Source: Escherichia phage JS98
DNA: 64,000 nucleotides
Sequence record: NC_010105.1
Strand: one strand, 5' to 3'
The position numbers and the translations under genes were made by a program. This document shows, piece by piece, positions 1,600-60,719 of this stretch. The notes under the pieces are model-generated. The model saw nothing but the letters and a program-made list of their open reading frames with translations. It was not told the DNA's origin and made no database searches. Numbering within the stretch: position 1 is the stretch's first letter; each line of letters starts with the position of its first letter.

Positions 1600-3278
1600 T
1601 CCATCACCGTGAATCGTCCAACTTTCTTCATTTGAAGATGTTGGCCATAAGCTTGTGGGTCATGGTCTCGGTGAGAGATAATGAACACGTTCGTATCCTC
1701 AAGGCTATTCAAGATGGTTGCAATGCTCTTAACGCCTTCAGCGTCAGTTGCACTGTCAAATACCTCATCAAGAATCAGTGTGGATATATTAACACCTGAT
1801 ACCCTAGAAGCAATATCACGCCATGTAAAAAGAAGTGCGATATCAATACGTGCTTTCTCACCCTGTGAAAATGAAGCATAACTAAAGTCTTCACGTCCAC
1901 GTGATTTAATCGTCTCATTGAATTCTTCGTCTAGGGTAAAGACGTAGTCCGCTTCCATAATCTTCAAATAAGAATTAATCTGCTTATTAAAGATAGGAAT
2001 GTATTTCTTAATAATGGAACCTTTAATACCGGTATCCTTCAACATTTCTGTCAGAATTCCACGATGATATTTTTCCATTACCAAGGACGATTTGGTAGAG
2101 ACGATTTTATCAAGCTCTGCTTGAAGCGCAGCAATCTCTTCGGCATTACTTACGAACTCAGCTGCTGCCTGGTCAATTAATACCTTAACCTTTTTAGCTT
2201 TCTCTACAGCAGTAATGGCTTGCTGTTTATGAGTAGCTATCTGAGATTTAATAGCCAACGCTTTATTGCGTTGTTCTGCTACTTGGTCTTTAATGAGCTT
2301 GAGCTCTTGGTACTGCTCATTAATCTTATCCAAAGATTTTTGAAGCTCAAAGTTTTTATCCTTAATTTTAGTAAGGATATTACCATGCTCTTCTAACCCT
2401 TGCATACACGTAGGGCAGTGACCACCGGTTTCGTATAACTTAACTACCTTTGTAAAGGTTGCCATATCATTTTTGATTGCAAATCCTTTATTACTCAGGT
2501 CACTCATGGAGTCGCTAGGGTCATCATCTACGATAACATTGAGTAATTCATCAGTCAGGGATTCTATGCTCGCCTTCGCAGTCCTGGCTTCTTTAACGAG
2601 CTCATCATACATTAATTGTAGACGGGCTGCGTTCTCACCAGATAATTTACGTTGACGTTCTTCGTTGTCGTTATAAATTTTAATTTGTTGGGTAATAGAA
2701 TCTTGCTTAACGTCTATTACTTGGATTTGGCTATTAGTCTCACGAATCAAAGATTTATTCAACTTATCCATATCCGCTAATACAGAAACCTCTAAGAGGT
2801 CTTCGACGAGTTTTCTTCTTGCAGGAGTGGATAGGCCCATAAAAGGGGTATATCCAGCTGTGCCGAGTACGACAATTTGTTTGAAGCTTGCATAGGACAT
2901 TCCGATAAGCTGTTCAAATTCCGCTTGGAAGTCTTTACTGCTGGCAGATTCATCAAGACGTTCACCGTCACAAGAGATTTCAAAAACGTTGGGTTTTTGC
3001 CCGCGTTTGATATAGTATTCTTTGCCATCATATTCCATCCACAGTTCGACCAAAAGGTCTTTCTTGTTACTTGAGTTAATCAACTGCCCTTTCTTAACAT
3101 CGCGAAAAGGCTTACCAAACAGAGCAAATGTTACAGCTTCAAGGAATGTTGATTTCCCTGCACCATTTTTACCAGTGACTAAGGTCTTTTGGACCTTGTC
3201 AAGTTGGATTGTAATAGGCTGCTGCCCTACCGACATAATATTTTTATACGTTACTTTCTTAAGCTTAAACGTTTTCAT
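1596..3278 (-). CDS. 46: recombination endonuclease subunit gp46 (Rad50/SbcC-like ATPase)
   Basis: 560 aa; Walker A GKNGAGKST near N-terminus, long coiled-coil middle, C-terminal ATPase signature; same length as T4 gp46. Confidence 0.9.
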   Translation of the reverse strand: MKTFKLKKVTYKNIMSVGQQPITIQLDKVQKTLVTGKNGAGKSTFLEAVTFALFGKPFRDVKKGQLINSSNKKDLLVELWMEYDGKEYYIKRGQKPNVFEISCDGERLDESASSKDFQAEFEQLIGMSYASFKQIVVLGTAGYTPFMGLSTPARRKLVEDLLEVSVLADMDKLNKSLIRETNSQIQVIDVKQDSITQQIKIYNDNEERQRKLSGENAARLQLMYDELVKEARTAKASIESLTDELLNVIVDDDPSDSMSDLSNKGFAIKNDMATFTKVVKLYETGGHCPTCMQGLEEHGNILTKIKDKNFELQKSLDKINEQYQELKLIKDQVAEQRNKALAIKSQIATHKQQAITAVEKAKKVKVLIDQAAAEFVSNAEEIAALQAELDKIVSTKSSLVMEKYHRGILTEMLKDTGIKGSIIKKYIPIFNKQINSYLKIMEADYVFTLDEEFNETIKSRGREDFSYASFSQGEKARIDIALLFTWRDIASRVSGVNISTLILDEVFDSATDAEGVKSIATILNSLEDTNVFIISHRDHDPQAYGQHLQMKKVGRFTVME

Positions 3279-3499
3279 GTATTGTTCTCACGAATTGTTT
3301 GTTCAGCATATTCTAGCATTTCTTCGGAAGAAGCAAACACGTCGTCAAGTTCCATGGCCCATGAAACACCTTCAGAATATTCAGAAGTGACATACATAGT
3401 TCCGGTATACCAAGAACCATCCACGTCCCATTCTACATTACCGAACCAGCCATCGCCAATATGAAAATCATGTTTATACATTTTCATCATTATAAGCAT
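3275..3499 (-). CDS. hypothetical protein (46.1 position)
   Basis: 74-aa ORF packed between 46 and 47. Confidence 0.45.
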   Translation of the reverse strand: MLIMMKMYKHDFHIGDGWFGNVEWDVDGSWYTGTMYVTSEYSEGVSWAMELDDVFASSEEMLEYAEQTIRENNT

Positions 3500-3737
3500 C
3501 CTTGATGCATGATTCAGCCATATGAATTAATGTTTCTGGAGTATCATCTACCATTACATTAAAGCTAAATTCTACAGCCCAATCGGTAGCAACATAAACT
3601 TTAATAAGCTCGCAGGTATCACGAGTGCTCACGGCTTCAAACCAGAACTTAATTGTACTAGGTTGGCCATCATCGTCAATAACTATACAGTCGTGTTCCA
3701 GTTCAAGTCCTGATTTTTTGAATTCATCTAAAGTCAT
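3474..3737 (-). CDS. hypothetical protein (46.2 position)
   Basis: 87-aa ORF packed between 46 and 47. Confidence 0.45.
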   Translation of the reverse strand: MTLDEFKKSGLELEHDCIVIDDDGQPSTIKFWFEAVSTRDTCELIKVYVATDWAVEFSFNVMVDDTPETLIHMAESCIKDAYNDENV

Positions 3738-4756
3738 CGTGTAACCTCATTATAAAGTTGTGCGGTCATAGTCTTAAGGGCTTTAACATCTTCTTCAGTG
3801 TGGCCATCAGGAAGGGCGTCGATATAATCATACATCATATCCAAGAGGGATTTAACTTCATCTTCCTCTTCAGAATCATCGATATCAACACTATTATCTA
3901 CCTTAGACACGATACGTAAAGAGTGAACAACCTTTTCAAGCTCTGATTCGAACTTAGTAAGGCCGTCATCGATTTTATCGACTATAACACGAACTGCGAT
4001 ATTTGTAAAATCTTTGTAATCGATAGTCGCATTAGGATAATGAATCTTACGATGCCAACAGGTTTCATTAATGATGAAATCCATTTTATGAGTTTCGGTA
4101 TCGAAAATCCAGAAACCACGAGGGTCGTTCTCATCACCTGCAGTCAGGGTCCATGGAGTACCAATGTACTTAACGTTTGCTGCATCAGAAATAGTGTGGA
4201 AGTGGCCTGACCAAACTTGCTTATACTTTTTAAGGAAATCAGGTTCTAAACCATGGGATTTCATTCCTTTATAGAAATAGAAACCATTTAATTCCCAATG
4301 ACCAACACAGAAATCTGCTGTAGTATTTTTGATATGGTCCATGATATCAGTCGTGTTTTCTTCACACATCCATGGAATCAAATCAATTTCGGTGCCATCA
4401 AAGTTAACCGTAGTAGGTTTTTCAATAACCTTGATATGGTCATATTTACCCAGAACTTCAGAAGCTGCGTTAGGAGTCAAGGTATTTTTGTAGTGCATAT
4501 CATGATTACCAACAATGGTATACATGGTAATGCCATTAGCTTTAAGCAAATCAGAGATTTCGCGAGCGAATTCCATACACTTATGGGTAATTGCTTTACG
4601 AACGTCAAAGATATCGCCGTATTGAATCCATACGGTAATACCATTTGCTTTAGAATAATCAATAGCGTCTTGGATACCTTGACGTTGGATATTTTGTACC
4701 CACACATCATCGGCCTTCACTCCAAGGTGCCAGTCACCTGTGTTTAATATTTTCAT
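3734..4756 (-). CDS. 47: recombination endonuclease subunit gp47 (Mre11/SbcD-like phosphoesterase)
   Basis: Start taken at MKILNTGDWHLG (ATG at 4754-4756), not the upstream in-frame Met of the ORF track; GDWH and GNHD phosphoesterase motifs; colinear with T4 gp47. Confidence 0.9.
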   Translation of the reverse strand: MKILNTGDWHLGVKADDVWVQNIQRQGIQDAIDYSKANGITVWIQYGDIFDVRKAITHKCMEFAREISDLLKANGITMYTIVGNHDMHYKNTLTPNAASEVLGKYDHIKVIEKPTTVNFDGTEIDLIPWMCEENTTDIMDHIKNTTADFCVGHWELNGFYFYKGMKSHGLEPDFLKKYKQVWSGHFHTISDAANVKYIGTPWTLTAGDENDPRGFWIFDTETHKMDFIINETCWHRKIHYPNATIDYKDFTNIAVRVIVDKIDDGLTKFESELEKVVHSLRIVSKVDNSVDIDDSEEEDEVKSLLDMMYDYIDALPDGHTEEDVKALKTMTAQLYNEVTR

Positions 4757-4896
4757 AAGCCGAGCACCGTTATCGCAATGCAAAATAAAATTATTGAGAT
4801 GAACCCATCAGGAGTAGAAAAGAATCCTATCCAACAGGCTCGTGTGAATGTGTAGAATGCCATGAATAACACGACATATCCTAAAAGTAATTCCAT
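4753..4896 (-). CDS. small hydrophobic protein (47 aa)
   Basis: MELLLGYVVLFMAFYTF... preceded by GAGGAGAA RBS; stop TGA overlaps gp47 ATG (ATGA coupling). Confidence 0.35.
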   Translation of the reverse strand: MELLLGYVVLFMAFYTFTRACWIGFFSTPDGFISIILFCIAITVLGL

Positions 4897-4939
4897 ATGT
4901 TCTCCTCAGTTGGTTCATTTTATCATCCGAATATAAAGC

Positions 4940-4960
4940 AAAAAAGGAGCCTAAGCTCCT
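4940..4960 (-). terminator. rho-independent terminator (palindrome GGAGC-CTAA-GCTCC with flanking A/T runs)
   Basis: Perfect 5-bp stem, 4-nt loop, T-run on the minus strand immediately after the 4951-5124 ORF. Confidence 0.5.
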
Positions 4961-5124
4961 TTACCAATTAATACACCATACAGAGGTTCATGAGAAGACC
5001 TGAACTTGATAGGCTTATAGGTAATAGTACCTTCATTTTCCGCTTTAATACGAGCAGCTTCAAATTTAAGTATCATCTCATTTTTGTCAGATTTAATCTT
5101 ATCAAAATCCATCGAATTCGTCAT
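4951..5124 (-). CDS. hypothetical small protein (57 aa)
   Basis: MTNSMDFDKIKSDKNEMILKFEAARIKAENEGTITYKPIKFRSSHEPLYGVLIGKGA, GAGG RBS upstream; below ORF-track cutoff. Confidence 0.3.
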   Translation of the reverse strand: MTNSMDFDKIKSDKNEMILKFEAARIKAENEGTITYKPIKFRSSHEPLYGVLIGKGA

Positions 5125-5396
5125 TCATAAAACCTCTTAAACTTTTTCGTATTCGTCATTCATAGCTTAAAAATCCGGATGTTCGTCTTTCATTAGCCAC
5201 CTGTCCATGTTATCATCGTTGCCACCACTTCTTAAGTTGATGTGAATCCACCCAAACCTTGGCTACAGGCTCAATCCGAAAAATTTCATCGGAATACTGC
5301 CCAACCATTTTATATTCGGTTTCAGTCTGCTTAATACAAATATTACCGTATGAGCGAAGTCTGAAGGCGGCTCCAATAAGAAGCCGTTTAAAGGGT

Positions 5397-5708
5397 TTAT
5401 TTACTAGCGCCATTGATAATTTCCCAAATCTGTTTACGCGTAGTTTCCCACATAACTCTAACGATTTCGTCAGTAGTTGGTTGACGGTAAATACCACGTA
5501 ATTTAATTATAGCATATTTGTAAGCTTCGAAATTGTTTTCGAGAACAGCGCCCTGAGCATGTGTATTAAGACGCTTAATTTCACGGGCATTCTTTTTAAG
5601 AATTTTGGCAGCTTGAGAAGCGGCTTCTTTAGCATTATTCTCTTCTAAACGCTTCTGGGCTTCTTCAATTTGCTCTTCGGTCAATTGAGAAATGTCGGTG
5701 CTTTGCAT
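5397..5708 (-). CDS. hypothetical protein (103 aa)
   Basis: Coherent ORF with AAGGA RBS before ATG. Confidence 0.5.
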   Translation of the reverse strand: MQSTDISQLTEEQIEEAQKRLEENNAKEAASQAAKILKKNAREIKRLNTHAQGAVLENNFEAYKYAIIKLRGIYRQPTTDEIVRVMWETTRKQIWEIINGASK

Positions 5709-5709
5709 A

Positions 5710-5937
5710 TTAATCCTTGTAATTCAGTTTTATATAAAAATCTTCGTCGGTAACGTGATAGTTATAAGTTAATGTTCCTTTTTCAGCTTTAATTTCTACC
5801 GAATCAGGGTGTTTTGGGTCTATTACAATAGGAAGCTTGGCAATATCCTTAAGATACATTTTAAGAACATAAGGAATTGCCGAATACTCTCCATCTACTT
5901 CTTCTAAAAGGCCTACCAGGTTAATCTTGAGTTCCAT
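5710..5937 (-). CDS. hypothetical protein (about 75 aa)
   Basis: ORF immediately downstream of gene 55; start set at internal Met to avoid long overlap. Confidence 0.4.
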
Positions 5938-6478
5938 ATAAAAAATCCAGCTCACCAACTTTAGATTCAGCGCTCTTATCAGACCCTGGCGCTTTAACTA
6001 AAGAGGTTTCATACTGAGTCATTTTGTCGTAAATATCCTGGATAAAAGTTTCATCTGCGATACCTACCATGTCGTCGTCATTGGCGTCATAAACGTTATG
6101 GACGAAGTAGCTGTATTTCTTTGCCATTTCTTTACGTTCTTTCTTGATACGCTGAACAAAGGCATTAAAACAAGCCATAGTGATATATGCATGTGGGTTG
6201 TCGTATTTTGTTTCGTCGAAGTTATGAAGACCTTTAATAGAGGCTTCGATTCCATCAGCAATCATTTCTTGCTTCCAAGATTGGGTATATCCGGAGAAGT
6301 TGAACCGCTTAGAAAGGCCTTCAGCAATGAGCATAATAGCCAAGCCGATAACGTCGTTCTGACGAACTATTTTATTAGGGTCGGTATTTTCTCGGAGTTC
6401 CGTTTTCCACTGGGTAATGGCTTTCAGAAGCTCCTTATTATTTACATAGTTATTTTTAGTCAGTTTAATTTCGGTCAT
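5921..6478 (-). CDS. 55: late-transcription sigma factor gp55
   Basis: 185 aa; NYVNNKELL...WKTEL...[58 protein letters not shown] matches T4 gp55 nearly residue for residue. Confidence 0.92.
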
Positions 6479-6544
6479 TGTTACCTCAGATAACTCAAAT
6501 CATAGGTCTATTATATCATAGTATTTGGAGACCCGTTTAAAGCA

Positions 6545-6808
6545 TCAACGGAGTAAGCAATAAGCCTGAAATACTGTTTCAAGGATTTGTATGAACTCGG
6601 GATAAGAAATTGTATCAGTACATCCATGTTCGGACATATATCCGCAAAATTCTTTAAAAAGTTCCGGATAATCCCGATGGTTGTATTTGGAAATATGAGA
6701 CTTCCATACTAAAGAAGTCTCACCACAAACAAACTCAACATCCATACAGTTATCTATTAAGAAAAATCCGAGACCTTCATAAGCGAGGGTGGTGGATATG
6801 GGTTTCAT
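6545..6808 (-). CDS. hypothetical protein (87 aa, Cys-containing)
   Basis: Intact ORF in leftward array. Confidence 0.4.
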   Translation of the reverse strand: MKPISTTLAYEGLGFFLIDNCMDVEFVCGETSLVWKSHISKYNHRDYPELFKEFCGYMSEHGCTDTISYPEFIQILETVFQAYCLLR

Positions 6809-7071
6809 TGTAGGAATCGAGCTCCTTCTAATGCATCATCAAGATTATCAAACTCATCGACGTAATCAATACCGCCAACTTCATCTTTAGCGTATAGCCA
6901 GTACCGTTTAAATTCATATTCGATAATAAAGTGGTCACCTTCAATCTGGAGAGCCCCATCACCATTAAATTGGACTGCATAACCTGTAAAGCGGACATCA
7001 TTCAGGAGTTCTTCTTTCATAGCAATCATTTCCAAGTTTTTATCGTAATTAGAGAGTTTTATTTTAATCAT
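6805..7071 (-). CDS. hypothetical acidic protein (88 aa)
   Basis: Intact ORF, stop/start overlap with neighbours. Confidence 0.4.
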   Translation of the reverse strand: MIKIKLSNYDKNLEMIAMKEELLNDVRFTGYAVQFNGDGALQIEGDHFIIEYEFKRYWLYAKDEVGGIDYVDEFDNLDDALEGARFLQ

Positions 7072-7397
7072 TTCGCAGCCTTAACAATTTTCAGGTCAAC
7101 GAATTTTTTCTTACGCTGGTTCTTCATACGACGGATGGTTTTGTCTGTGATTTCACCTGGGTGCCAAGCTTTAGATTCAACACCGAAGGCAGCAACATCA
7201 AACTCATCAAGAATATATTGAACCAGGATTTCACGAATACCGTTCTTACCAATTTTTTGGTCTTTAGAGTGCATGATTGGTAACAGTTCAGCAACCCATT
7301 GGTCAAGAACCTGAGGAGTTACAAAGCCAGTTTTCATCAGTTCATTAACTTTATCGAAAGCGAAAGAGTTCAGTACGTTTTTAATAGCTTGTGACAT
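7068..7397 (-). CDS. hypothetical protein (109 aa), starts MSQAIKN
   Basis: ORF with GAGGAAATT RBS; 5' leader and first codons identical to those of the 14377-15222 gene. Confidence 0.5.
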   Translation of the reverse strand: MSQAIKNVLNSFAFDKVNELMKTGFVTPQVLDQWVAELLPIMHSKDQKIGKNGIREILVQYILDEFDVAAFGVESKAWHPGEITDKTIRRMKNQRKKKFVDLKIVKAAK

Positions 7398-7436
7398 AAT
7401 AATTTCCTCAGTTTAAAATTTATAATCCGTGGGACC

Positions 7437-7466
7437 ATTATACTCTGGTCCCAAGAGTTTGTAAAC
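7437..7466 (-). promoter_or_regulatory. sigma70-type early promoter (GTTTACA -35, 17-bp spacer, TATAAT -10) with inverted repeat GGGACC/GGTCCC flanking the -10
   Basis: Read on minus strand: GTTTACAAACTCTTGGGACCAGAGTATAATGGTCCC upstream of 7068-7397. Confidence 0.55.
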
Positions 7467-7666
7467 TATTTTTGTGCTAGTGCGCCTTTCCAACCTTCAT
7501 ACATCGCGGCGGCTGATATTAATATTGCTCCTGCGCATTTTGAATATTTGTTATTCCAAAACCAGTTTAGAAAAACTTCGTCATCAATACCTTGAGCTAC
7601 CATATTTTCAAAGAACTGACGACGGGCTTCAGCAATTCGTTGTGATAATTTAGATTCAGGATTCAT
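7466..7666 (-). CDS. hypothetical protein (66 aa)
   Basis: Intact ORF. Confidence 0.4.
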   Translation of the reverse strand: MNPESKLSQRIAEARRQFFENMVAQGIDDEVFLNWFWNNKYSKCAGAILISAAAMYEGWKGALAQK

Positions 7667-7805
7667 TTAAATTTTCCAGTTGCCGTTTTCATCAATAAAT
7701 TCAATCCAGTCATTTACTGACCACTTAGTCGTATCGCCTTTTGGAGCAACATTTAAGGTGTATAATCCTTGTTTAAAAAGCATACGTTTGATATTCATAT
7801 TTTCC

Positions 7806-8099
7806 TCAGCTGTAACGATAGCACTCGTTTGATTTACGTTTTGCAACTCGATGAGAAGTATTGTAATCAGGTTCATCGTCGTTGTAAACATCTTTTTTCA
7901 GCTTTCTCACTTCTTTACGAAGTTGGCGATTCATTTCATTCTTAACTTCAGAATCAACGCCACGCATACGTTTCCACTTGTCAGAACGGAAGATATTTTC
8001 TTCAACTCGTTCCTGACTTACGCCGTCTGGTGCTTTACGACGTCCGGAATAATAAAAATCTTTTACAGACAATTCTTTACGACGGATAGTTTTACCCAT
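7806..8099 (-). CDS. hypothetical basic protein (97 aa)
   Basis: Lys/Arg-rich ORF. Confidence 0.4.
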   Translation of the reverse strand: MGKTIRRKELSVKDFYYSGRRKAPDGVSQERVEENIFRSDKWKRMRGVDSEVKNEMNRQLRKEVRKLKKDVYNDDEPDYNTSHRVAKRKSNECYRYS

Positions 8100-8101
8100 A
8101 G

Positions 8102-8356
8102 TTACCTCAACAGTTTGTATCCAATAAGGTTTTTAATGTACTGGATGTCTTTGATATCCAAATCCAACTTAAGGTCTTTCAGACGGTCGGCCAGGGTCAA
8201 AAAGGTTACATGCTTCCAATTCTTCACTGGGCAGCAATAAGTCTTAGGACCATTTGCAATTTCAATATTCTTATCAGTGACGGTGAGAAAAATTAGGCGC
8301 TCATCATCCAGATTAAGGGTGACGACATTTTTCATTGAATGCAATTTCAGGCTCAT
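8102..8356 (-). CDS. hypothetical protein (84 aa)
   Basis: Intact ORF. Confidence 0.4.
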   Translation of the reverse strand: MSLKLHSMKNVVTLNLDDERLIFLTVTDKNIEIANGPKTYCCPVKNWKHVTFLTLADRLKDLKLDLDIKDIQYIKNLIGYKLLR

Positions 8357-8558
8357 AATTTAATTTCCTTAGCTATCGAACAAAACACACCGCGGTCACA
8401 AATCATTTTAATATTAAGGTCAATTATGGTATACCACACGTCCAGGCTAGATATTTCAGTTACTAGAACAGCTTTGCCGTTGATTGAATAATACTGGTTG
8501 ACTTTAATTTCTTTATCTTGGATAGTCATAATGTTCTCCTCATGTGTTGATAGGATAG

Positions 8559-8587
8559 ACTATAACACGTGAGGAGAGGAAGTAAAC
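8559..8587 (-). promoter_or_regulatory. early promoter (GTTTAC -35, 17-bp spacer, TATAGT -10)
   Basis: Minus-strand GTGTTTACTTCCTCTCCTCACGTGTTATAGTCTATCC, followed by GAGGAG RBS and a 53-aa ORF. Confidence 0.4.
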
Positions 8588-8588
8588 A

Positions 8589-8906
8589 CTAATCTTCAAT
8601 TAAATCTCGGTCATAGCCAAGTTCAATCAAAAGGGATTTGAAGGCAGGAATATTTTCTATTTTCTTATTATCAACAAAGATTACAGGATAGCGTATAGCT
8701 AAGCTCTTGAAGCCAGCACGTTTGGCCAATGATACTATAAGAGGCTTATCATATACTGCGCCTGACGGCGTCTGGTTAATTACAGGATAGAAAGTATATT
8801 GGATAGAAAGGGAATTTAGGAGCGATAGAACTGCAATGCACCCTGGACAGCGCATGACCGTCTCAGGGATACCGTAAATCTCAATTTTAGTTAACTTTTG
8901 GTCCAC
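8589..8906 (-). CDS. glutaredoxin/NrdH-like redoxin (CPGC active site)
   Basis: KIEIYG beta-strand then CPGC dithiol and C-terminal glutaredoxin-like region; start placed at GTG 8904-8906, 8 nt after an AAGGAG RBS (start uncertain). Confidence 0.5.
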   Translation of the reverse strand: MDQKLTKIEIYGIPETVMRCPGCIAVLSLLNSLSIQYTFYPVINQTPSGAVYDKPLIVSLAKRAGFKSLAIRYPVIFVDNKKIENIPAFKSLLIELGYDRDLIED

Positions 8907-9183
8907 AGGAAATAACTCCTTGGTAGTCCCAAGTTTTGATAACTTCGTCTTCATTAGTTCCATACGGGATGTAAATCTGGATAAGGAACCCAGTATCATC
9001 AAAAGAGAAGTAGACGGTAGGTTTAATACCGTGAATCTCTGAAAGAGCATAGATGTCCTTGAGGTCATCTTCCTTACCGATAAAGAATTCTGGGTTCAGG
9101 TCACAGTCATGGAAGTACCATTCTTGGCCAAACTTGTCCCAAGCCGCCCAATCAGTAGCTACATACTCTTCAAAACGTTTCAT
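8887..9183 (-). CDS. hypothetical protein (98 aa)
   Basis: Intact ORF; 20-nt overlap with glutaredoxin start. Confidence 0.4.
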   Translation of the reverse strand: MKRFEEYVATDWAAWDKFGQEWYFHDCDLNPEFFIGKEDDLKDIYALSEIHGIKPTVYFSFDDTGFLIQIYIPYGTNEDEVIKTWDYQGVISCGPKVN

Positions 9184-9407
9184 TCTTTCACCTTCATCAT
9201 TTTAGAAATAACACTATGAACAGACTGGATTCGTTTTTCGAACTCAGACTCTTCAAGACCCTTTTCAGTACTCAGCGCACCAATCATCACAAACAGCAAT
9301 CCAAATGGGATAACCAGGATTAAAAGGCACACAATAAACAGGACAAATGTAATATTGGCCAGGATATCAGAAGCAGCATTACGAAATTTATTCATACGAT
9401 AGTCCAT
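9180..9407 (-). CDS. small membrane protein (75 aa, one TM helix)
   Basis: Hydrophobic stretch ITFVLFIVCLLILVIPFGLLFVMIGAL. Confidence 0.4.
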   Translation of the reverse strand: MDYRMNKFRNAASDILANITFVLFIVCLLILVIPFGLLFVMIGALSTEKGLEESEFEKRIQSVHSVISKMMKVKE

Positions 9408-9501
9408 GTATTAGTTACAACAAATAACCATTGAGCAGGATACTCAACACCCATGCGCCGGATAATATCATTCATAGATTCGGTTAAGGCGTAAAAATTA
9501 A

Positions 9502-9975
9502 TCATTTAAGCGATTTCCTCAGTTGTTTTTTAAATGAATCAACCATTTGTTTCTTTGTGTCAGATTCATTATAAGTCATTCCATGTGAAAGCATTTCAGC
9601 AATCATTTCTTCCTTACCTAATCTACTGAACTCTTTGGTTTTATCAGGAACGAAATTAGGATGGATATTGTTTTCAGTGTAATCAGATTTCAGATAGACC
9701 AGCAAATTCTCTAACCATTCGAGGTAGTCAACGTTTTGACCTTTAAGACCAGAACGGTTGAACTTATGCTTCATTTGTCCTTCTGCAGCATTGCACAGGT
9801 TACATAGTAAACCACGAACCTTACCAGCTTTTGGCCCGCTCAATTCATGGTCGTGGTCAAGGTGGTTACTTTGAACATCAGGGTTTAATTCACGTTTACA
9901 AATCAAACACTTACCACATTGTGCATCATAAAGTTTTTGTTTTTCTTCTTTGTATAATTTGCCGGTCAACAACAT
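9502..9975 (-). CDS. 49: endonuclease VII (Holliday-junction resolvase) gp49
   Basis: 157 aa; MLLTGKLYKEEKQK.YDAQ.GKCLIC.RELNPDVQ.NHLDHDHEL.GPKAGKVRGLLCNLCNAAEG is essentially T4 endo VII. Confidence 0.93.
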   Translation of the reverse strand: MLLTGKLYKEEKQKLYDAQCGKCLICKRELNPDVQSNHLDHDHELSGPKAGKVRGLLCNLCNAAEGQMKHKFNRSGLKGQNVDYLEWLENLLVYLKSDYTENNIHPNFVPDKTKEFSRLGKEEMIAEMLSHGMTYNESDTKKQMVDSFKKQLRKSLK

Positions 9976-10010
9976 AATAAACCCTTACCATTATTAGATA
10001 AGGGTATTTA

Positions 10011-10196
10011 TTATTTTTCAAATGTGCTATAGAACGAACGGTGCAACCGTTTAAATTGACGAATCATCTTTTTGGTAGGACGAGTATACAATCCCACACA
10101 GGTGGCCATAAACTGGTCAGTAGGGCTTCCTTTGATAAGAAGTTTCCAGACCTTGTCACCGTTTAACTTTTCGGTATAGACTAATGCAGTTTTCAT
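10011..10196 (-). CDS. hypothetical protein (61 aa)
   Basis: Intact ORF. Confidence 0.35.
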   Translation of the reverse strand: MKTALVYTEKLNGDKVWKLLIKGSPTDQFMATCVGLYTRPTKKMIRQFKRLHRSFYSTFEK

Positions 10197-10495
10197 GCGA
10201 CCTCAAATTCATTATCATCGTTAGTCCAAAAACACCAGAATGAAGCTTTAGTATCTTCAAACATTTCTTTAGTGTATTCGTATACCTTACCATTGAATTC
10301 GATAGCAGTTACGCCAATGATTTCAGGATTGCCCCATGGAGAAATCTCCACCTTCAAGATTTTAACTTCAGCACCTTCACAGAGCTCGCCTGACTCAAAA
10401 CCGCGATTGCCGTTTAATTCAGGCCAGTCAACATAATGGTCGACATCTTCTTCAGTAATACGAACAGTTTTACCTTCAAATTCAAATAAATTCAT
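10193..10495 (-). CDS. hypothetical acidic protein (100 aa)
   Basis: Intact ORF. Confidence 0.4.
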   Translation of the reverse strand: MNLFEFEGKTVRITEEDVDHYVDWPELNGNRGFESGELCEGAEVKILKVEISPWGNPEIIGVTAIEFNGKVYEYTKEMFEDTKASFWCFWTNDDNEFEVA

Positions 10496-10708
10496 CAGAA
10501 GGCCTCATCAGAAAAGCGGAGTTGAGCTTCAAGCCAATGGATATAATCGGCTGCGGCTTTAATTAAATCAGACTCTAGGTCAGGTAAAGAACCCGAATCC
10601 GATAACTCGTAAAGCGAATGTTCAATCAGACGGCCTTTATGACGGCCAATTTCAATTTTGGTACTCATATCCAAACTCCATATCGATTAAATCATTGTTT
10701 GAAGGTTC

Positions 10709-10784: not shown

Positions 10785-11093
10785 TTAATGGTCACGCCAC
10801 CAACTACTTACTTCAAAATCAGGCTCGCCGTCTTCCCAATACCAAGGGCCGATTGGATGCCAATCACCATGCTCATCTTCTTCAAATTCTTCGGATTCGA
10901 GCCCAACGTATTGCCATTGGACTTCATAAGCAATGTCACCGATTACAACGGTGTTCTCGCCATACGGATTAGCCACAACAAAGTCTATACCTTCTGCTTT
11001 AGCCAGCCAAACCATATATTCGTATAGTTTATATTCTAGGTCATCTTCGGTGCCATCACCTAGAAAAATGGTTTGTTCGTTTAATTCAATCAT
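10785..11093 (-). CDS. hypothetical acidic, Trp-rich protein (102 aa)
   Basis: Intact ORF. Confidence 0.4.
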   Translation of the reverse strand: MIELNEQTIFLGDGTEDDLEYKLYEYMVWLAKAEGIDFVVANPYGENTVVIGDIAYEVQWQYVGLESEEFEEDEHGDWHPIGPWYWEDGEPDFEVSSWWRDH

Positions 11094-11347
11094 AATTCCA
11101 CCATAAATTCAAATAGCTGGTCACGTACACAAGTATCAGTCCAACCCCATTCAGTGGCTTCTTCTTTTAACCAATCCGGGAGATTTACCAATACGGTTTC
11201 TTTACTAGGCGCGGGAGTATCAAACTCACTTGCAAACTCTCTTGCGCAGGTTTTATAGGCCATATCAAATTCGGTCATTTGAAGTTCCAGAATGAAGCAC
11301 CAACCAGAAATAAAGGCCAACAAATCATAGACGTCAGCCACCAACAA
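11090..11347 (-). CDS. hypothetical protein (85 aa)
   Basis: Intact ORF. Confidence 0.4.
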   Translation of the reverse strand: MLVADVYDLLAFISGWCFILELQMTEFDMAYKTCAREFASEFDTPAPSKETVLVNLPDWLKEEATEWGWTDTCVRDQLFEFMVEL

Positions 11348-11432
11348 AAGTCACCGGAATCATCTAATTTAGCTAGGGTCTTAGCATAACCAATACCGAT
11401 GATAAGATACAAAACACCCAACGATAATTCAA

Positions 11433-11696
11433 TCATTTGAAATATGCTCGCAGTTGGTCAAAGCCACCAATAGAAGTTCCGTCTGGAGCAAATACCTGAG
11501 GCATGGTCAAACCTACTTGAGATTCACGTCCAAGAGCAGCCAGGAGTTCAGCAATCTTCTCATCATCAAATACGCCTTTTTCCGGCATCACGTTAATGAA
11601 TTCGTAAGGTTGTTTCTTAACATCAAGCAGACGTTTGGCATTATCACAGAAAACACAACGGTGAATATTTGAATCGTAACCATAAACTTTAAACAT
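11433..11696 (-). CDS. nrdC: phage thioredoxin/glutaredoxin NrdC
   Basis: 87 aa; MFKVYGYDSNIH.CV.CDNAKRLL.VKKQP.EFIN.MPEKGVFDDEKIAELL matches T4 NrdC, CVxC active site. Confidence 0.9.
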   Translation of the reverse strand: MFKVYGYDSNIHRCVFCDNAKRLLDVKKQPYEFINVMPEKGVFDDEKIAELLAALGRESQVGLTMPQVFAPDGTSIGGFDQLRAYFK

Positions 11697-36286: not shown

Positions 36287-36343
36287 TATGTTCTCCTCAA
36301 ATTACGGGCTCATAATATCTCAATCATGGGCCCATGTAAACAA

Positions 36344-36607
36344 TTATTTCATATTATTGAAATAATCTTCTGCATTAAAATCGTTATCATGGTAAACTTT
36401 GGTAGACGTTTTGGCGTAGCCTTCAGCTGAGAACATATTAATCACAACTTTAATTGTATACCACTGTCCATCTTCGTTACCCATTACTGCATAGGTTTCA
36501 TACACTGGGTGTTCAGGACCGATAACCTTAATATCGTTAACAGTAGCACCAAATTCTTCAGGAACGCATTTCATAAAGAAATTAAACAATTCACCATAAT
36601 TATCCAT
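36344..36607 (-). CDS. hypothetical protein (about 87 aa)
   Basis: Start at MDNYGELF (ATG 36605-36607) after GAAGGAGAG RBS. Confidence 0.4.
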   Translation of the reverse strand: MDNYGELFNFFMKCVPEEFGATVNDIKVIGPEHPVYETYAVMGNEDGQWYTIKVVINMFSAEGYAKTSTKVYHDNDFNAEDYFNNMK

Positions 36608-36633
36608 TTTACTCTCCTTCACACTGTTGTTTT

Positions 36634-36671
36634 GATAGGTCTATAGTATCATGTTTAAAGGAGGTGTAAAC
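36634..36671 (-). promoter_or_regulatory. conserved early-promoter cassette (PeSL-like)
   Basis: Minus-strand GTTTACACCTCCTTTAAACATGATACTATAGACCTATCAAAACAACAG. Confidence 0.5.
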
Positions 36672-36706
36672 AACTTTGTGAAATTATTTTTAGTTTAAAC
36701 CCCCTA

Positions 36707-36728
36707 AAAGGAGACCAAAGTCTCCTTT
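36707..36728 (-). terminator. rho-independent terminator (AAAGGAGAC-CAAA-GTCTCCTTT palindrome)
   Basis: Hairpin immediately after stop of 36731-37348, followed by TTTAGGGGG on minus strand. Confidence 0.5.
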
Positions 36729-36730
36729 CA

Positions 36731-37348
36731 TTATTTACGGGTCTTTTCGAACTGTGCTGCGTCACCTGCAAGGCGGCGGGCTTGACGAAGTTTGTTATCA
36801 ATTTCTTCGTGCATAGGCTGGGTATACTTAAGGCCTTCAACCGTCAGGTAAAGACGATAGAGGTCCGGGGTATCTAGGTTGTTAATGTGCTGCCCATTAC
36901 GAAGGGCGTTGAATTCTCGAACGAGTTGTTTAGTTTCGGATTCGATTTCAGAAACCAAAGAAGCCAGCTGGTTATATTTTTTAACAATAGTGCTGGTGTC
37001 GAACTTGATTTTAGGTTTAGGAGCTTCTTTTACAGGCTCTGCTTTAGGTGTAGGTTTCGGCGCTGCAACTTTGGTCTGAGCCGCGGGTTTAGAAACAGGA
37101 GCTTTAGCTGGTTTAGCAGGCTTAGTAGAGCCACCGGCTACGATATCTTTAAAAGCTTTGGAAGCTTTGTAATATTCTTTCTGGCTACTAGTATCAAAAC
37201 CATACATATCATAAACGTTTTTAAAGAACTCGGTAGTGGTTTTAGTCCCGGAAATTTTATCATAAGCAGCTTGCCACATATCTTTAGTCATGCGCACGCC
37301 GGCTTCATTCAGAACGCTTTCGTTCAAAAATTCATTGTAAGTTTTCAT
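36731..37348 (-). CDS. internal-protein-like protein (205 aa) with Ala/Pro/Lys-rich linker
   Basis: MKTYNEFLNES capsid-targeting leader; KPAKPAKAPVSKPAAQTK low-complexity segment. Confidence 0.55.
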   Translation of the reverse strand: MKTYNEFLNESVLNEAGVRMTKDMWQAAYDKISGTKTTTEFFKNVYDMYGFDTSSQKEYYKASKAFKDIVAGGSTKPAKPAKAPVSKPAAQTKVAAPKPTPKAEPVKEAPKPKIKFDTSTIVKKYNQLASLVSEIESETKQLVREFNALRNGQHINNLDTPDLYRLYLTVEGLKYTQPMHEEIDNKLRQARRLAGDAAQFEKTRK

Positions 37349-37376
37349 TATTGTTTCCTGTGTTAATTAACTTATC

Positions 37377-37384
37377 TATTTATA
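37377..37384 (-). promoter_or_regulatory. late promoter TATAAATA
   Basis: Minus-strand TATAAATAG about 30 nt upstream of the 36731-37348 ATG. Confidence 0.55.
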
Positions 37385-37385
37385 C

Positions 37386-38205: not shown

Positions 38206-38281
38206 TGGTCGAGACAGTAGGGATCGAACCTACGACCTACGGTTTAGAAGACCGTTGCTCTTCCTTCTGAGCTATGCCTCG
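38206..38281 (-). tRNA. tRNA-Arg (anticodon UCU)
   Basis: Hand-folded cloverleaf: acceptor CGAGGCA/TGTCTCG, D-arm GCTC..GAGC, anticodon loop CTTCTAA, T-arm GTAGG-TTCGATC-CCTAC, encoded CCA. Confidence 0.7.
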
Positions 38282-38285
38282 TATT

Positions 38286-38360
38286 TGGCGGACATGCATG
38301 GATTCGAACCATGGACCAATTGATTAACAGTCAACTGCTCTACCGCTGAGCTACACATCC
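38286..38360 (-). tRNA. tRNA-Asn (anticodon GUU)
   Basis: Hand-folded: acceptor GGATGTG/CATGTCC (two G-U pairs), D-arm GCTC..GAGC, anticodon loop CTGTTAA, T-arm CATGG-TTCGAAT-CCATG, encoded CCA. Confidence 0.65.
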
Positions 38361-38364
38361 AAAT

Positions 38365-38438
38365 TGGTGGCCCTGGGTGGAATCGAACCACCATCCAGCG
38401 ATTATGAGTCGCTCGCTTGACCGTCCAGCTACAGGGCC
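38365..38438 (-). tRNA. tRNA with CAU anticodon (Ile-lysidine type or Met)
   Basis: Hand-folded: acceptor GGCCCTG/CAGGGCC, anticodon stem AGCGA/TCGCT with loop CTCATAA, T-arm GGTGG-TTCGATT-CCACC, encoded CCA; short D-stem. Confidence 0.6.
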
Positions 38439-46628: not shown

Positions 46629-47150
46629 ATGAGCACAGATTTAGGAGACTCCATGGAAGGAGCCTCAATCGATGTTACGTTTACCGCTCAATTAGAAACA
46701 AACGAAACATTAGTTGAAATAAATATAACAGAATATGAGCCAACAGAAGGCATTATTGTCGATGGGGCTCGTTTATACGGAACCTATGAATCGGTATTCG
46801 GATTTTCTGAAGATGCGTTAAAATATCGATTAGGCGATGAATTTAAAACAGCAGGTTCATGGAAAGATTTACCAGAGGACAAGAGCACTCAATTATACCT
46901 CTGGAAAGCCCCTGGTAATCTTCAGAAGACTTTTTCCTATACCGTCACATTAATCTATGACTTTCAGGAAGAGTCATCAGGAGGTGATACAGGGAGCTCA
47001 GGAGGAAGTAATTCTAGAGCCGGTAACGAAACAGACCCTCCTCCAGCACCAGTAAGAAAAACTCTTACTAAGGTTTATACCAAGGTTATAGTGGGTAATT
47101 GGAGCAAATGGGCTAATCAACTCAGAGAATATGTATATGCGAGGCCATAA
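46629..47150 (+). CDS. hypothetical baseplate-region protein (5.1 position)
   Basis: Start at MSTDLGDS; Gly/Ser-rich C-terminal segment. Confidence 0.45.
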
Positions 47151-58463: not shown

Positions 58464-60719
58464 ATGATTAACAAATTGGAACTTAGTGAGTTACCATTTG
58501 TTGACGGCGTACCTGATGCTCCTCAAAAGCGTATCCAATGGATACGCGAGGGTGATTGTATGTCTGCAGCAAAAACAAAATACGGCAATGAAGGTAATTT
58601 GAACGCTGCTGCTTTAGGAGTTCAGAAAAACGTAGAAGCTCTTGATGCCAACGATTTAAAAACTGCTGATAAAGTTAATGAGCTTATAGAAAACGTTAAT
58701 AATATCAATGACGCTTTAGAAATGTCAACAGATATTTCTATCATTCAACAAATAGAGAAAAACCGTGTTGATATTGTAGACCTTAAAAAAGTCACCGAAG
58801 ATACAACAGAAAAATTAGACACCTTAACAACCAATTTTGATTTCTTGCGTGAAGATGTTGGATACCATGACCCTTTACAAGACGGCCCATATTTAACTGT
58901 ACGTGAAAATATTGTTCTTCTTAAAAATGAAATTGGTCACTATGAGGACCAGGATATAAACGGTAATCCTTTACCTCCGGGTGAAACTAGTGAAGCCACT
59001 GGTATAAAACGCCGCATCATGGATAATACCACTGAATTGGTGGACCACCGTCTTCGTATTGATACCCTTGAAAGAAACTATGAAGATTCTGATGTTGGGC
59101 AATTAGGTATTAAACTAAATGAAATTCGTGCCGAATTAGGACCACATTCTGATACGGTAGGTAAACAACCCGCTTACACCCGAATTTCAGTATTAGAAAC
59201 GGCTGCAGTTAATTTTAATACGGCTATTGACGAAATTAAGGATAATATTGATTTCTCTGGTATGCCTATAAAGGACCGAGTAACTACTTTAGAAAGCAAA
59301 ACCTTTACCTTAGAAAATTCAGTTAACGTTGATTTAAAACCTAGAGTAACTTCTATAGAAACTCAAATCGGTTCTGAGTCTGCACCAGCATCTATTAATG
59401 GACGTTTAAGTGGGCTTCGTACTGATGTAAATGATTTAAAAACCGTTGTTGGTAATAGTTCTAGTGAAGGGCTTCGTTTCCAGGTTTCCGATATTAATCG
59501 ACGCCTTGGTAGTGAAGTGTCTCCTGCAGCTGGCACTATTAATAAGCGTTTGAATGATGTTATTATTCAAGCAAACCAATCTACCTCATCCATCCAGGAT
59601 ATTCAGGTAGAAATTGGTAACAACCAATCCGGTATAAAAGGTACTTTGCTTAAGCTCACAAATAAGGTTGACGGAACGAACCCTAACGGAGCTACCGTAG
59701 AAGAACGTGGTCTTATTAATGCGGTTACTTCTTTAGAAACCCAGATGCAAGGTAAATTAGGTGACGCGCCTTCTGATGGTAAACTCTATGCACGTCGAAA
59801 TGCGGCATGGGCTGAAGTTGTTAATAATTCCACAGAAATAGAAACTGTTAAAGCCGATTTGGTTGTTACTAATGGTAAAGTGACCGCTTTAACTTCTAGA
59901 GTAGATGATAACGATACTTCTATTTCATCTCTTAATACTCGCACCACTGCTCTAAATACTTCGGTTGGTGAGATTAAAGCCGATATAGTTACTATAAAGG
60001 CCAAAGATGTTGAACAGGACGGTCGTTTAACTTCTTTGGAAGAGGCTGATGTTACTATTAACGGTAAAATTGCTGCTCTTGAAACTAAGACAGATACCAC
60101 TGATGATGATGTCACAGCACTGGCTTTAGACGTTTCTTCTTTAGAGAACCAATTGACTCCTATAAAAGCCGATATTACCAAAAACAAAGGTGATATTGTT
60201 GCCTTAACTGGTCGAGTGGCTTCTACTGAAGGTGAAATTACCGCAATTAAAGTTGATACAGCCAAAATTGCTCCTTTAACAACTAGAGTTACTACGGCAG
60301 AAGGTAAAATCACTACTTTAGAAACAGGGCTTGCCGCTGTTAAAGTCGAATCCGATAAAGTAGCAGGAATCAATACCCGCCTTGGCACTGCAGAAGGTGA
60401 CATCGGAACACTTAAAACAGGGTTGGCTGAAGTTAAGGGTGAATCCGATAAAGTAGCAGCTATAGATACCCGTTTGGGTGTTGTTGAAGGCGAAGTTGGT
60501 ACTCTTGAAACAGGTTTGGCTGCTGTTAAAGTTGAATCTGATAAAGTTGCTGACTTAGGAACCCGTTTAACCGCTGCCGAAGGTAAAATTACAGCCTTAG
60601 AAACAGAATTATCTAAACGTCCACCGGTGGCTCCTGCCGCAGACGGACTTCCGTATGTTCTGGTTGATAACGCATGGGTATTATTGTCTGATTTTGTGAC
60701 TTTAAACTCAGCACCATAA
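58464..60719 (+). CDS. wac: fibritin (neck whiskers) wac, extended form
   Basis: 751 aa; N-terminal LSELPFVDGVPDA as in T4 fibritin, long heptad coiled coil, C-terminal foldon-like PYVLVDNAWVLLSDF. Confidence 0.8.
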   Translation: MINKLELSELPFVDGVPDAPQKRIQWIREGDCMSAAKTKYGNEGNLNAAALGVQKNVEALDANDLKTADKVNELIENVNNINDALEMSTDISIIQQIEKNRVDIVDLKKVTEDTTEKLDTLTTNFDFLREDVGYHDPLQDGPYLTVRENIVLLKNEIGHYEDQDINGNPLPPGETSEATGIKRRIMDNTTELVDHRLRIDTLERNYEDSDVGQLGIKLNEIRAELGPHSDTVGKQPAYTRISVLETAAVNFNTAIDEIKDNIDFSGMPIKDRVTTLESKTFTLENSVNVDLKPRVTSIETQIGSESAPASINGRLSGLRTDVNDLKTVVGNSSSEGLRFQVSDINRRLGSEVSPAAGTINKRLNDVIIQANQSTSSIQDIQVEIGNNQSGIKGTLLKLTNKVDGTNPNGATVEERGLINAVTSLETQMQGKLGDAPSDGKLYARRNAAWAEVVNNSTEIETVKADLVVTNGKVTALTSRVDDNDTSISSLNTRTTALNTSVGEIKADIVTIKAKDVEQDGRLTSLEEADVTINGKIAALETKTDTTDDDVTALALDVSSLENQLTPIKADITKNKGDIVALTGRVASTEGEITAIKVDTAKIAPLTTRVTTAEGKITTLETGLAAVKVESDKVAGINTRLGTAEGDIGTLKTGLAEVKGESDKVAAIDTRLGVVEGEVGTLETGLAAVKVESDKVADLGTRLTAAEGKITALETELSKRPPVAPAADGLPYVLVDNAWVLLSDFVTLNSAP
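60322..60600 (+). repeat. three tandem 93-bp (31-aa) repeats inside wac coiled-coil region
   Basis: AAACAG repeat landmarks at 60322, 60415, 60508, 60601; units TGLAAVKVESDKVAGINTRLGTAEGDIGTLK / TGLAEVKGESDKVAAIDTRLGVVEGEVGTLE / TGLAAVKVESDKVADLGTRLTAAEGKITALE. Confidence 0.7.

Follow-up and report, generated by a model that had tools for sequence, protein, structure and literature searches.

In phage T4 (NC_000866) the region bounded by the recombination gene 47 and the endonuclease VII gene 49 follows the order 47, 47.1, a-gt, mobB, a-gt.2 to a-gt.5, 55, 55.1 to 55.6, nrdH, 55.8, nrdG, mobC, nrdD (with an intron and I-TevII) and 49. Phage RB69, a member of Mosigvirus, displays a variation on this theme: gene 47 directly adjoins a-gt.2, while the pair nrdG-nrdD is kept between 55.8 and 49. 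The analysis presented here concerns the corresponding interval of Escherichia phage JS98, the type of the genus Dhakavirus and a relative of T4, and in particular the absence from it of the alpha-glucosyltransferase gene a-gt and of the anaerobic ribonucleotide reductase genes nrdD and nrdG. The window, meaning the whole stretch of DNA that was analysed, spans 64 kb (about 38%) of the 170.5-kb JS98 genome. Phages of the JS98/JS10 type were reportedly described by Zuber in 2007.

Near-identity of both DNA and proteins to JS98 and JS10 places the window in Dhakavirus. Positions 3700-10000 align over their full length with JS10, another member of the genus, at 98.3% DNA identity, and the 64 kb as a whole are collinear with JS10 positions 31,800-95,076, bar a few indels, and 96-99% identical. 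Four window proteins are exact JS98 GenBank entries: gp46, gp47 (YP_001595186.1), the product of the 98-residue open reading frame (ORF) at 8887-9183 (YP_001595202.1) and that of a 205-residue ORF at 36731-37348. The first of these falls in a single-member cluster that holds the JS98 sequence alone, and no difference from JS98 was observed, the tested window proteins being identical; the source of the window is accordingly JS98 or an isolate that cannot be told apart from it. Every gene in the first 44 kb of the window is on the minus strand, and the G+C content is about 39%. The complete JS10 genome served as a whole-genome proxy for JS98 in the homology searches.

Absence of a-gt, nrdD and nrdG

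An earlier note on this DNA had claimed that no ORF of the size of a-gt is present between genes 47 and 55, and that only small ORFs and one glutaredoxin-like gene stand between genes 55 and 49, where T4 carries nrdD and nrdG. Both claims hold. Between gp47 and gp55 the longest ORF on either strand encodes 103 residues, compared with the 400 residues of T4 a-gt, and no similarity to a-gt is detectable. Between gp55 and gp49 the genes proper, counted as eleven ORFs, encode 37-109 residues, and the only longer frames are nrdH extended upstream to 159 residues and two on the antisense strand. The T4 gene order on which the note relied is correct according to NC_000866, and its interval, 4757-9501, coincides exactly with the stretch enclosed by genes 47 and 49.

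Homology searches tell the same story. The window and the complete JS10 genome were searched by tblastn with the T4 proteins a-gt, b-gt, NrdG, NrdD (both exons), MobB and MobC, the RB69 proteins NrdD and NrdG, and the RB68 homologue of ba-gt. No match was better than E = 0.06; the best values for the transferase queries were 0.10 (T4 a-gt), 6.4 (T4 b-gt) and 0.063 (RB68 ba-gt homologue). In the same search the flanking control genes were matched at 57-95% identity (gp47 71%, gp55 78%, NrdH 60%, gp49 88%). The JS10 annotation contains no a-gt, b-gt, ba-gt, nrdD or nrdG entry. A Pfam scan of the seven window ORFs of 228-355 residues that have no assigned function found no glycosyltransferase; the controls were positive, with T4 a-gt scoring 862 bits against PF11440 and the RB68 enzyme matching its own family. 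The whole-genome survey proposed in the earlier note, performed on complete JS10, thus found no counterpart of a-gt, b-gt/ba-gt, nrdD or nrdG: neither a-gt nor a second transferase of the T-even glucosyl-hydroxymethylcytosine system was detected in the window or in JS10, and no class III ribonucleotide reductase with either T4 or RB69 queries.

These absences are the normal gene content of Dhakavirus, and there is nothing new in them. RB69 and JS98 were reported to encode genes 42 and 56 and to be without glucosyltransferase homologues, and the question of another modification was raised at that time (Petrov 2010; PMC2993671). JS98, JS10, IME08 and VR7 are listed with nrdB-nrdA only, that is, a class I ribonucleotide reductase, in Table S1 of Dwivedi 2013 (PMC3653736), and the alternative modification is covered by Lee 2026 (PMC13326640). 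It is very improbable that a-gt (or b-gt/ba-gt) and nrdD/nrdG reside elsewhere in JS98, beyond the 64-kb window. The window does represent only about 38% of the genome, the rest of the JS98 sequence being outside the search, but complete JS10, 96-99% identical and collinear, yielded no tblastn match at E < 0.06 and no annotation of these genes, and the published tables report the same absence for JS98 itself.

The two slots left empty differ in their organization. In place of T4 a-gt and mobB, which take up about 2.1 kb, the window has a 54-bp spacer. A terminator-like hairpin, AAAGGAGC-TTAG-GCTCCTTT, is located at 4962-4943 and is followed by a T run, with the a-gt.2 stop codon inside the hairpin. 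Directly after it comes a site resembling a MotA-box middle promoter (TGCTTTA-N11-TAAAAT, 4940-4917), a pattern that the window contains 13 times where 4.7 would be expected, and then a GAGGAGA Shine-Dalgarno sequence ahead of 47.1. The spacer is a putative working regulatory region rather than a scar. The nrdG-mobC-nrdD slot, about 4 kb long in T4 and about 2.3 kb in RB69, accommodates in the window a single ORF of 37 residues, which takes up the 94 bp separating gene 49 from 55.8. This ORF is coupled at both ends through ATGA, its start with the gene 49 stop and its own stop with the 55.8 start. Local alignment of the gene 49-55.8 junction with the nrdG-nrdD DNA of RB69 and T4 matched the flanks alone. 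The notion that the 37-residue ORF is a visible remnant of NrdD or NrdG was rejected, as the ORF belongs to a recognized family, phrog_3350, and no deletion scar was found.

A deletion in the laboratory stock or a collapse in assembly is an explanation to which hardly any weight can be given, and independent genomes effectively refute it. The same junctions recur in 46 independent phage records and in contigs derived from metagenomes and the SRA, both are neat (terminator and promoter at one, ATGA-coupled ORFs at the other), and no residual nrdD/nrdG sequence is present.

The features of the interval and its borders are listed below; percentages refer to the T4 or RB69 protein named.

3734-4756, minus strand: gene 47, SbcD-like recombination endonuclease subunit; 71% to T4 gp47, full length; left border of the interval
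4753-4896, minus strand: 47.1, predicted small membrane protein of 47 residues; 80% to T4 gp47.1; phrog_6693, E = 1e-30
4897-4950, minus strand: empty a-gt slot, the 54-bp spacer between 47.1 and a-gt.2, identified from the sequence and the T4 layout
4951-5124, minus strand: a-gt.2 homologue, 57 residues; tblastn with T4 a-gt.2, E = 7e-18; phrog_2140
5213-5413, minus strand: a-gt.3 homologue, 66 residues; 45% to T4 a-gt.3; phrog_1648
5397-5708, minus strand: a-gt.4 homologue, 103 residues, DUF2654; 43% to T4 a-gt.4; PF10849, E = 1e-24
5710-5937, minus strand: a-gt.5 homologue, 75 residues; 51% to T4 a-gt.5; phrog_1169
5921-6478, minus strand: gene 55, late sigma factor; 78% to T4 gp55, full length
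6545-6808, minus strand: 87-residue ORF, DUF7200, not in T4, equivalent to RB69 ORF072c; PF23830, E = 6e-33; 37% to RB69p072
6805-7020, minus strand: 55.1 homologue; 48% to T4 55.1
7068-7397, minus strand: 55.2 homologue, 109 residues, DUF7570; 65% to T4 55.2; PF24454
7466-7666, minus strand: 55.3 homologue, 66 residues; 74% to T4 55.3; phrog_2084
7667-7798, minus strand: 55.4 homologue, 43 residues; 93% to T4 55.4
7806-8099, minus strand: 55.5 homologue, 97 residues, DUF5499; 75% to T4 55.5; PF17603
8102-8356, minus strand: 84-residue ORF, DUF7290, not in T4, equivalent to RB69 ORF079c; PF23962, E = 1e-41; 42% to RB69p079
8353-8529, minus strand: 55.6 homologue, 58 residues; 57% to T4 55.6; phrog_2283
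8589-8906, minus strand: nrdH, glutaredoxin/thioredoxin-fold protein of 105 residues with a CPGC motif; 60% to T4 NrdH residues 2-102
8887-9183, minus strand: 98-residue ORF, not in T4, equivalent to RB69 ORF082c; phrog_2749, E = 7e-48; 46% to RB69p082
9180-9395, minus strand: 55.8 homologue, small membrane protein; 42% to T4 55.8, aligned from 9395
9392-9505, minus strand: 37-residue ORF in the empty nrdG-mobC-nrdD slot; phrog_3350, E = 8e-24, full length
9502-9975, minus strand: gene 49, endonuclease VII; 88% to T4 gp49, full length; right border of the interval
11433-11696, minus strand: nrdC, thioredoxin, a retained component of the aerobic ribonucleotide reductase system; 85% to T4 NrdC

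The T4 backbone of small genes is complete and its order unchanged, with 43-95% amino acid identity to T4 by tblastn. Gene 47 starts at ATG 4756, in an ATGA shared with the 47.1 stop. For 55.1 an alternative start exists at ATG 7071, and the phrog_1662 match opens at residue 18 of the long ORF. The start of 55.8 is likely to be ATG 9395, giving a predicted product of 71 residues ATGA-coupled to the preceding ORF; the phrog_1930 match opens at residue 5 of the ORF starting at 9407. A 13-nt direct repeat, ATGAATGACGAAT, is present in two copies at 5116-5163, one shortly before the a-gt.2 start and one at it, producing two overlapping ATG contexts, and similarity to T4 a-gt.2 reaches upstream of the annotated start, to 5193.

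Comparison across genera gives an indication of the direction of change. Between 47 and 49, JS10 and the window do not differ in gene order. RB69 has in common with the window the three ORFs that T4 lacks (072c, 079c and 082c) and an nrdH that overlaps its upstream ORF, but differs in keeping nrdG-nrdD. Compared with the window, T4 (Tequatrovirus) has a-gt, mobB, nrdG, mobC and an intron-containing nrdD with I-TevII in addition. Because the RB69 slot is equally empty, a-gt, together with mobB, is more likely to be an acquisition of the T4 lineage (Tequatrovirus) than a loss in Dhakavirus. NrdD was found in 2,923 phage records and adjoins endonuclease VII in Tequatrovirus, Mosigvirus, Klebsiella JD18-like phages and EcS1. 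Because nrdG-nrdD is present beside gene 49 in T4, RB69 and several other genera, its absence would represent a Dhakavirus-specific loss, common across the genus. A search with the 55.8-to-49 segment retrieved the contiguous 55.8-ORF-gene 49 junction in 46 phage records, while in about 1,050 others the match does not begin until the gene 49 stop. An additional ORF of 82 residues, between 55.2 and 55.1 in other Dhakavirus contigs (L011:3765-4013, L012:3032-3280), is found in neither the window nor JS10 and points to a turnover of small genes inside the 55-49 interval.

A probable replacement DNA-modification cluster

RB69 possesses an arabinosyl-5-hydroxycytosine system, reportedly described by Thomas in 2018. 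Its DNA contains mono- and poly-arabinosylated 5-hydroxycytosine, and its gp48 makes 5-hydroxy-deoxycytidine monophosphate (5-hydroxy-dCMP) with O2, an Asn at the position equivalent to E. coli ThyA 169 being diagnostic of such synthases (Lee 2026; PMC13326640). The same study includes Dhakaviruses among the predicted 5-hydroxycytosine producers on the basis of syntenic clusters.

In Dhakavirus the cluster is located beyond the window, and its analysis used JS10 and three other contigs of the genus (L010-L012). From uvsX to imm/43, T4 is equipped with b-gt and gene 42, whereas JS10 harbours six ORFs annotated as hypothetical, the first five of which have RB69 counterparts:

JS10_0038: 65-70% to RB69 gp46:47; putative arabinosyltransferase
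JS10_0039: Pfam Thymidylat_synt; 80% to RB69 gp48, 25% to T4 gp42
JS10_0040: 38% to RB69 gp45 kinase
JS10_0041: 62% to RB69 gp51
JS10_0042: 41-44% to RB69 gp52:53; Pfam NTP_transferase and APH; 557 residues

Aligned with E. coli ThyA, T4 gp42 and RB69 gp48, JS10_0039 shows Asn169, Asp177, Glu143 and Cys146. Its orthologues on the three contigs have the same four residues, and with JS10 these proteins are 79-80% identical to RB69 gp48. The product of T4 gene 42, by contrast, retains Asp169 and shares only 25% identity with the Dhakavirus enzyme, and in T4 b-gt follows gene 42. No hydroxymethylase of the gene 42 type with Asp169 was found in JS10, where the sole homologue has Asn169, or on the three contigs, where the situation is the same. 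Several components of an RB69-type system are present in these four relatives: alongside the Asn169/Asp177 synthase there are homologues of gp46:47, gp45, gp51 and gp52:53 (38-70% in JS10), and the same cluster gene set is observed on all three contigs.

The only member of the modification pathway within the window is the following gene, whose RB69 orthologue phosphorylates 5-hydroxy-dCMP (PMC13326640):

41517-42278, minus strand: gene 1, deoxynucleoside monophosphate kinase; collinear with JS10 gp1

Taken as a whole, the locus is very probably a T4-like interval minus two T4 cassettes, in a lineage that carries an RB69-type cytosine module. The 47-49 interval has the form usual in T-even phages, a minus-strand block of closely spaced small genes of the early and middle classes, and the two cassettes missing relative to T4 are a-gt with the homing endonuclease gene mobB, and nrdG-(mobC)-nrdD. 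Such a phage would dispense with the glucosylation of hydroxymethylcytosine. The module between uvsX and 43 contains the Asn169/Asp177 thymidylate-synthase homologue, a nucleotide kinase, a phosphatase, a bifunctional sugar-1-phosphate nucleotidyltransferase/kinase and one putative arabinosyltransferase. By homology, the virion cytosines are most likely 5-hydroxycytosine carrying arabinose. The suggestion in the earlier note that DNA modification may differ from that of T4 gains substance here, since homologues of the RB69-type arabinosylation cluster stand in place of b-gt and gene 42. Deoxynucleotides would be supplied by the retained aerobic NrdAB, NrdC and NrdH and by breakdown of host DNA and, when oxygen is lacking, would presumably come from the host's own NrdDG.

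A number of observations pull in the opposite direction. On the side of gene content, the main text of Dwivedi 2013 (PMC3653736) states that 'clusters 1, 2 and 3' share nrdGDBA, and a figure legend assigns JS98, JS10 and IME08 to cluster 1; this sentence clashes with Table S1 of the same paper and with the searches reported above, which agree with the table. Absence at the level of the whole genome rests on JS10 and the published JS98 tables, with ~106 kb of JS98 beyond the window outside the search. On the side of chemistry, RB69 gp3 (a second arabinosyltransferase), gp49, gp50 and gp55 (an arabinose-5-phosphate isomerase) were sought in JS10 and none was found, with no match at E < 1 for gp3 and gp55. 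The Dhakavirus cluster is thus reduced in comparison with that of RB69, so that which sugar is attached, and how many, might differ. For JS10_0038, the only transferase candidate, Pfam gave no match, and its role is deduced from homology to RB69 gp46:47, a protein itself assigned by structure prediction (Lee 2026; PMC13326640). No Dhakavirus nucleoside or DNA chemistry was found in the literature searched.

The same gaps lend some support to a different scenario, in which the modified cytosine, hydroxymethyl- or hydroxy-cytosine, bears no sugar at all, or one that is not arabinose, and the RB69-like genes serve another purpose. Non-glycosylated hydroxymethyl-dCMP in JS98 was left open by Petrov 2010 (PMC2993671), and neither the isomerase nor the second transferase of RB69 has a Dhakavirus homologue. 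However, four Dhakavirus genomes have kept the whole set, consisting of the synthase, the kinase, the phosphatase, the nucleotidyltransferase/kinase and the homologue of gp46:47. E. coli has arabinose-5-phosphate isomerases of its own, KdsD and GutQ, and these host enzymes could replace the missing phage isomerase. Dhakaviruses are also counted by Lee 2026 (PMC13326640) among the 5-hydroxycytosine genera with syntenic clusters. A missing or different sugar is accordingly regarded as improbable, and arabinosylated 5-hydroxycytosine as the preferred reading.

A more elaborate proposal combines the two departures from T4 and RB69: the pared-down cluster would generate mono-arabinosyl-5-hydroxycytosine, unlike the poly form of RB69, and DNA synthesis in Dhakavirus would depend on O2, restricting productive infection to oxygenated gut niches. 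A mono-arabinosyl base is suggested by the presence of one transferase and the absence of a phage isomerase and of gp3/gp50 homologues; O2 dependence is suggested by a synthase that takes its oxygen atom from O2 and by the loss of the anaerobic reductase. As a joint reading this is tentative and on balance rather unlikely, and a bearing on oxygen-limited growth of Dhakavirus is speculative, as RB69 keeps nrdDG. A general link of nrdDG loss with the O2-dependent cytosine pathway fails, as nrdD is kept both in RB69 (Mosigvirus) and in EcS1, presumably a member of Kagamiyamavirus. Mosigviruses and 'Kagamiyumaviruses' are on the list of predicted 5-hydroxycytosine producers (Lee 2026; PMC13326640).

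These considerations have a practical side. JS98-like phages have been considered for phage therapy, and the glucosyl-hydroxymethylcytosine of T4 should not be assumed for them: a different response to restriction enzymes, type IV restriction systems, glycosylase defences and tools based on clustered regularly interspaced short palindromic repeats (CRISPR) is likely. As a discovery the findings carry little weight, given that the JS98-type gene content was published in 2007-2013 and the RB69-like cytosine modification was worked out in 2018-2026. Adjoining the modification cluster in JS10 is JS10_0043 (L002:26103-26603, beyond the window), whose product starts with MKKLIIAMSMLLSGC, has a lipoprotein-type signal sequence and is without an RB69 counterpart.

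The nrdH gene

The glutaredoxin-like gene of the interval is a homologue of T4 nrdH: its product matches phrog_22 (E = 9e-14) with the CPGC motif aligned. The score against the Pfam Glutaredoxin model, 18.6 bits, is below the cut-off of 22.9. The earlier note had proposed a GTG start for the gene and an overlap of about 20 nt with the ORF upstream, and on both counts it was right. The start codon, GTG at 8906-8904, is preceded by AAGGAG at 8921-8916 with a 9-nt spacer, and the upstream 98-residue ORF terminates with TAA at 8889-8887, so that the overlap is exactly 20 nt. In the alignment of T4 and RB69 NrdH an N-terminal strand, KIE(I/V)YGIP (KIEIYGIP in the window), is conserved ahead of CPGC. 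GTG 8906 is favoured as the start because alignment with T4 NrdH, from residue 2, and with RB69 NrdH needs that N-terminus.

Other starts were rejected. The internal ATG, Met72, adopted in the JS10 GenBank entry, would remove the conserved KIEIYGIP strand, and the upstream ATGs of the 159-residue ORF have neither homology support nor a good Shine-Dalgarno sequence. The JS10 GenBank nrdH (L002:40182-40448) omits 17 N-terminal residues, including that strand, whereas on three other Dhakavirus contigs nrdH was called automatically at 105 residues. As a predicted gene model, the 105-residue, GTG-initiated nrdH is better than the JS10 annotation. The retention of nrdH in a genome from which nrdD and nrdG are gone shows that this gene is not tied to the anaerobic enzyme.

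Further features of the window

Outside the interval, the window deviates from JS10 by a handful of small indels. A 204-bp segment (3279-3482) not present in JS10 gives rise to a 46.1 homologue of 74 residues (3275-3499, DUF5487) between 46 and 46.2. An insertion of 331 bp relative to JS10 (11094-11424) is located between 49.3 and nrdC and accommodates two small ORFs: the 85-residue ORF at 11090-11347 covers only positions 207-295 of the 310-position phrog_9444 profile and may be a gene fragment, and the 53-residue ORF at 11275-11436 is a full-length member of phrog_6756. A third segment, of 1,088 bp (36298-37385), replaces 77 bp of JS10 and carries the 205-residue ORF at 36731-37348; this is identical to JS98 gp135, belongs to phrog_2280, has no Pfam match and occurs in only some Dhakaviruses.

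In the opposite sense, the segC/mobE-type homing endonuclease gene that JS10 has between 5.1 and 5.4 (77414-78011) is missing at window position 47149-47150. The fibritin gene wac (58464-60719) is also shorter, encoding 751 residues compared with 799 in JS10, and overlapping blastn pieces at about 60300-60570 indicate a different copy number of an internal repeat. At 10011-10674 there is no intact counterpart of T4 Pin, the inhibitor of the host Lon protease; three small consecutive ORFs (10011-10196, 10193-10495 and 10495-10674) each show weak similarity to different parts of Pin, though not in Pin order. Finally, three tRNA genes are present on the minus strand at 38206-38438, Arg-TCT, Asn-GTT and Met-CAT, in agreement with the JS10 annotation.

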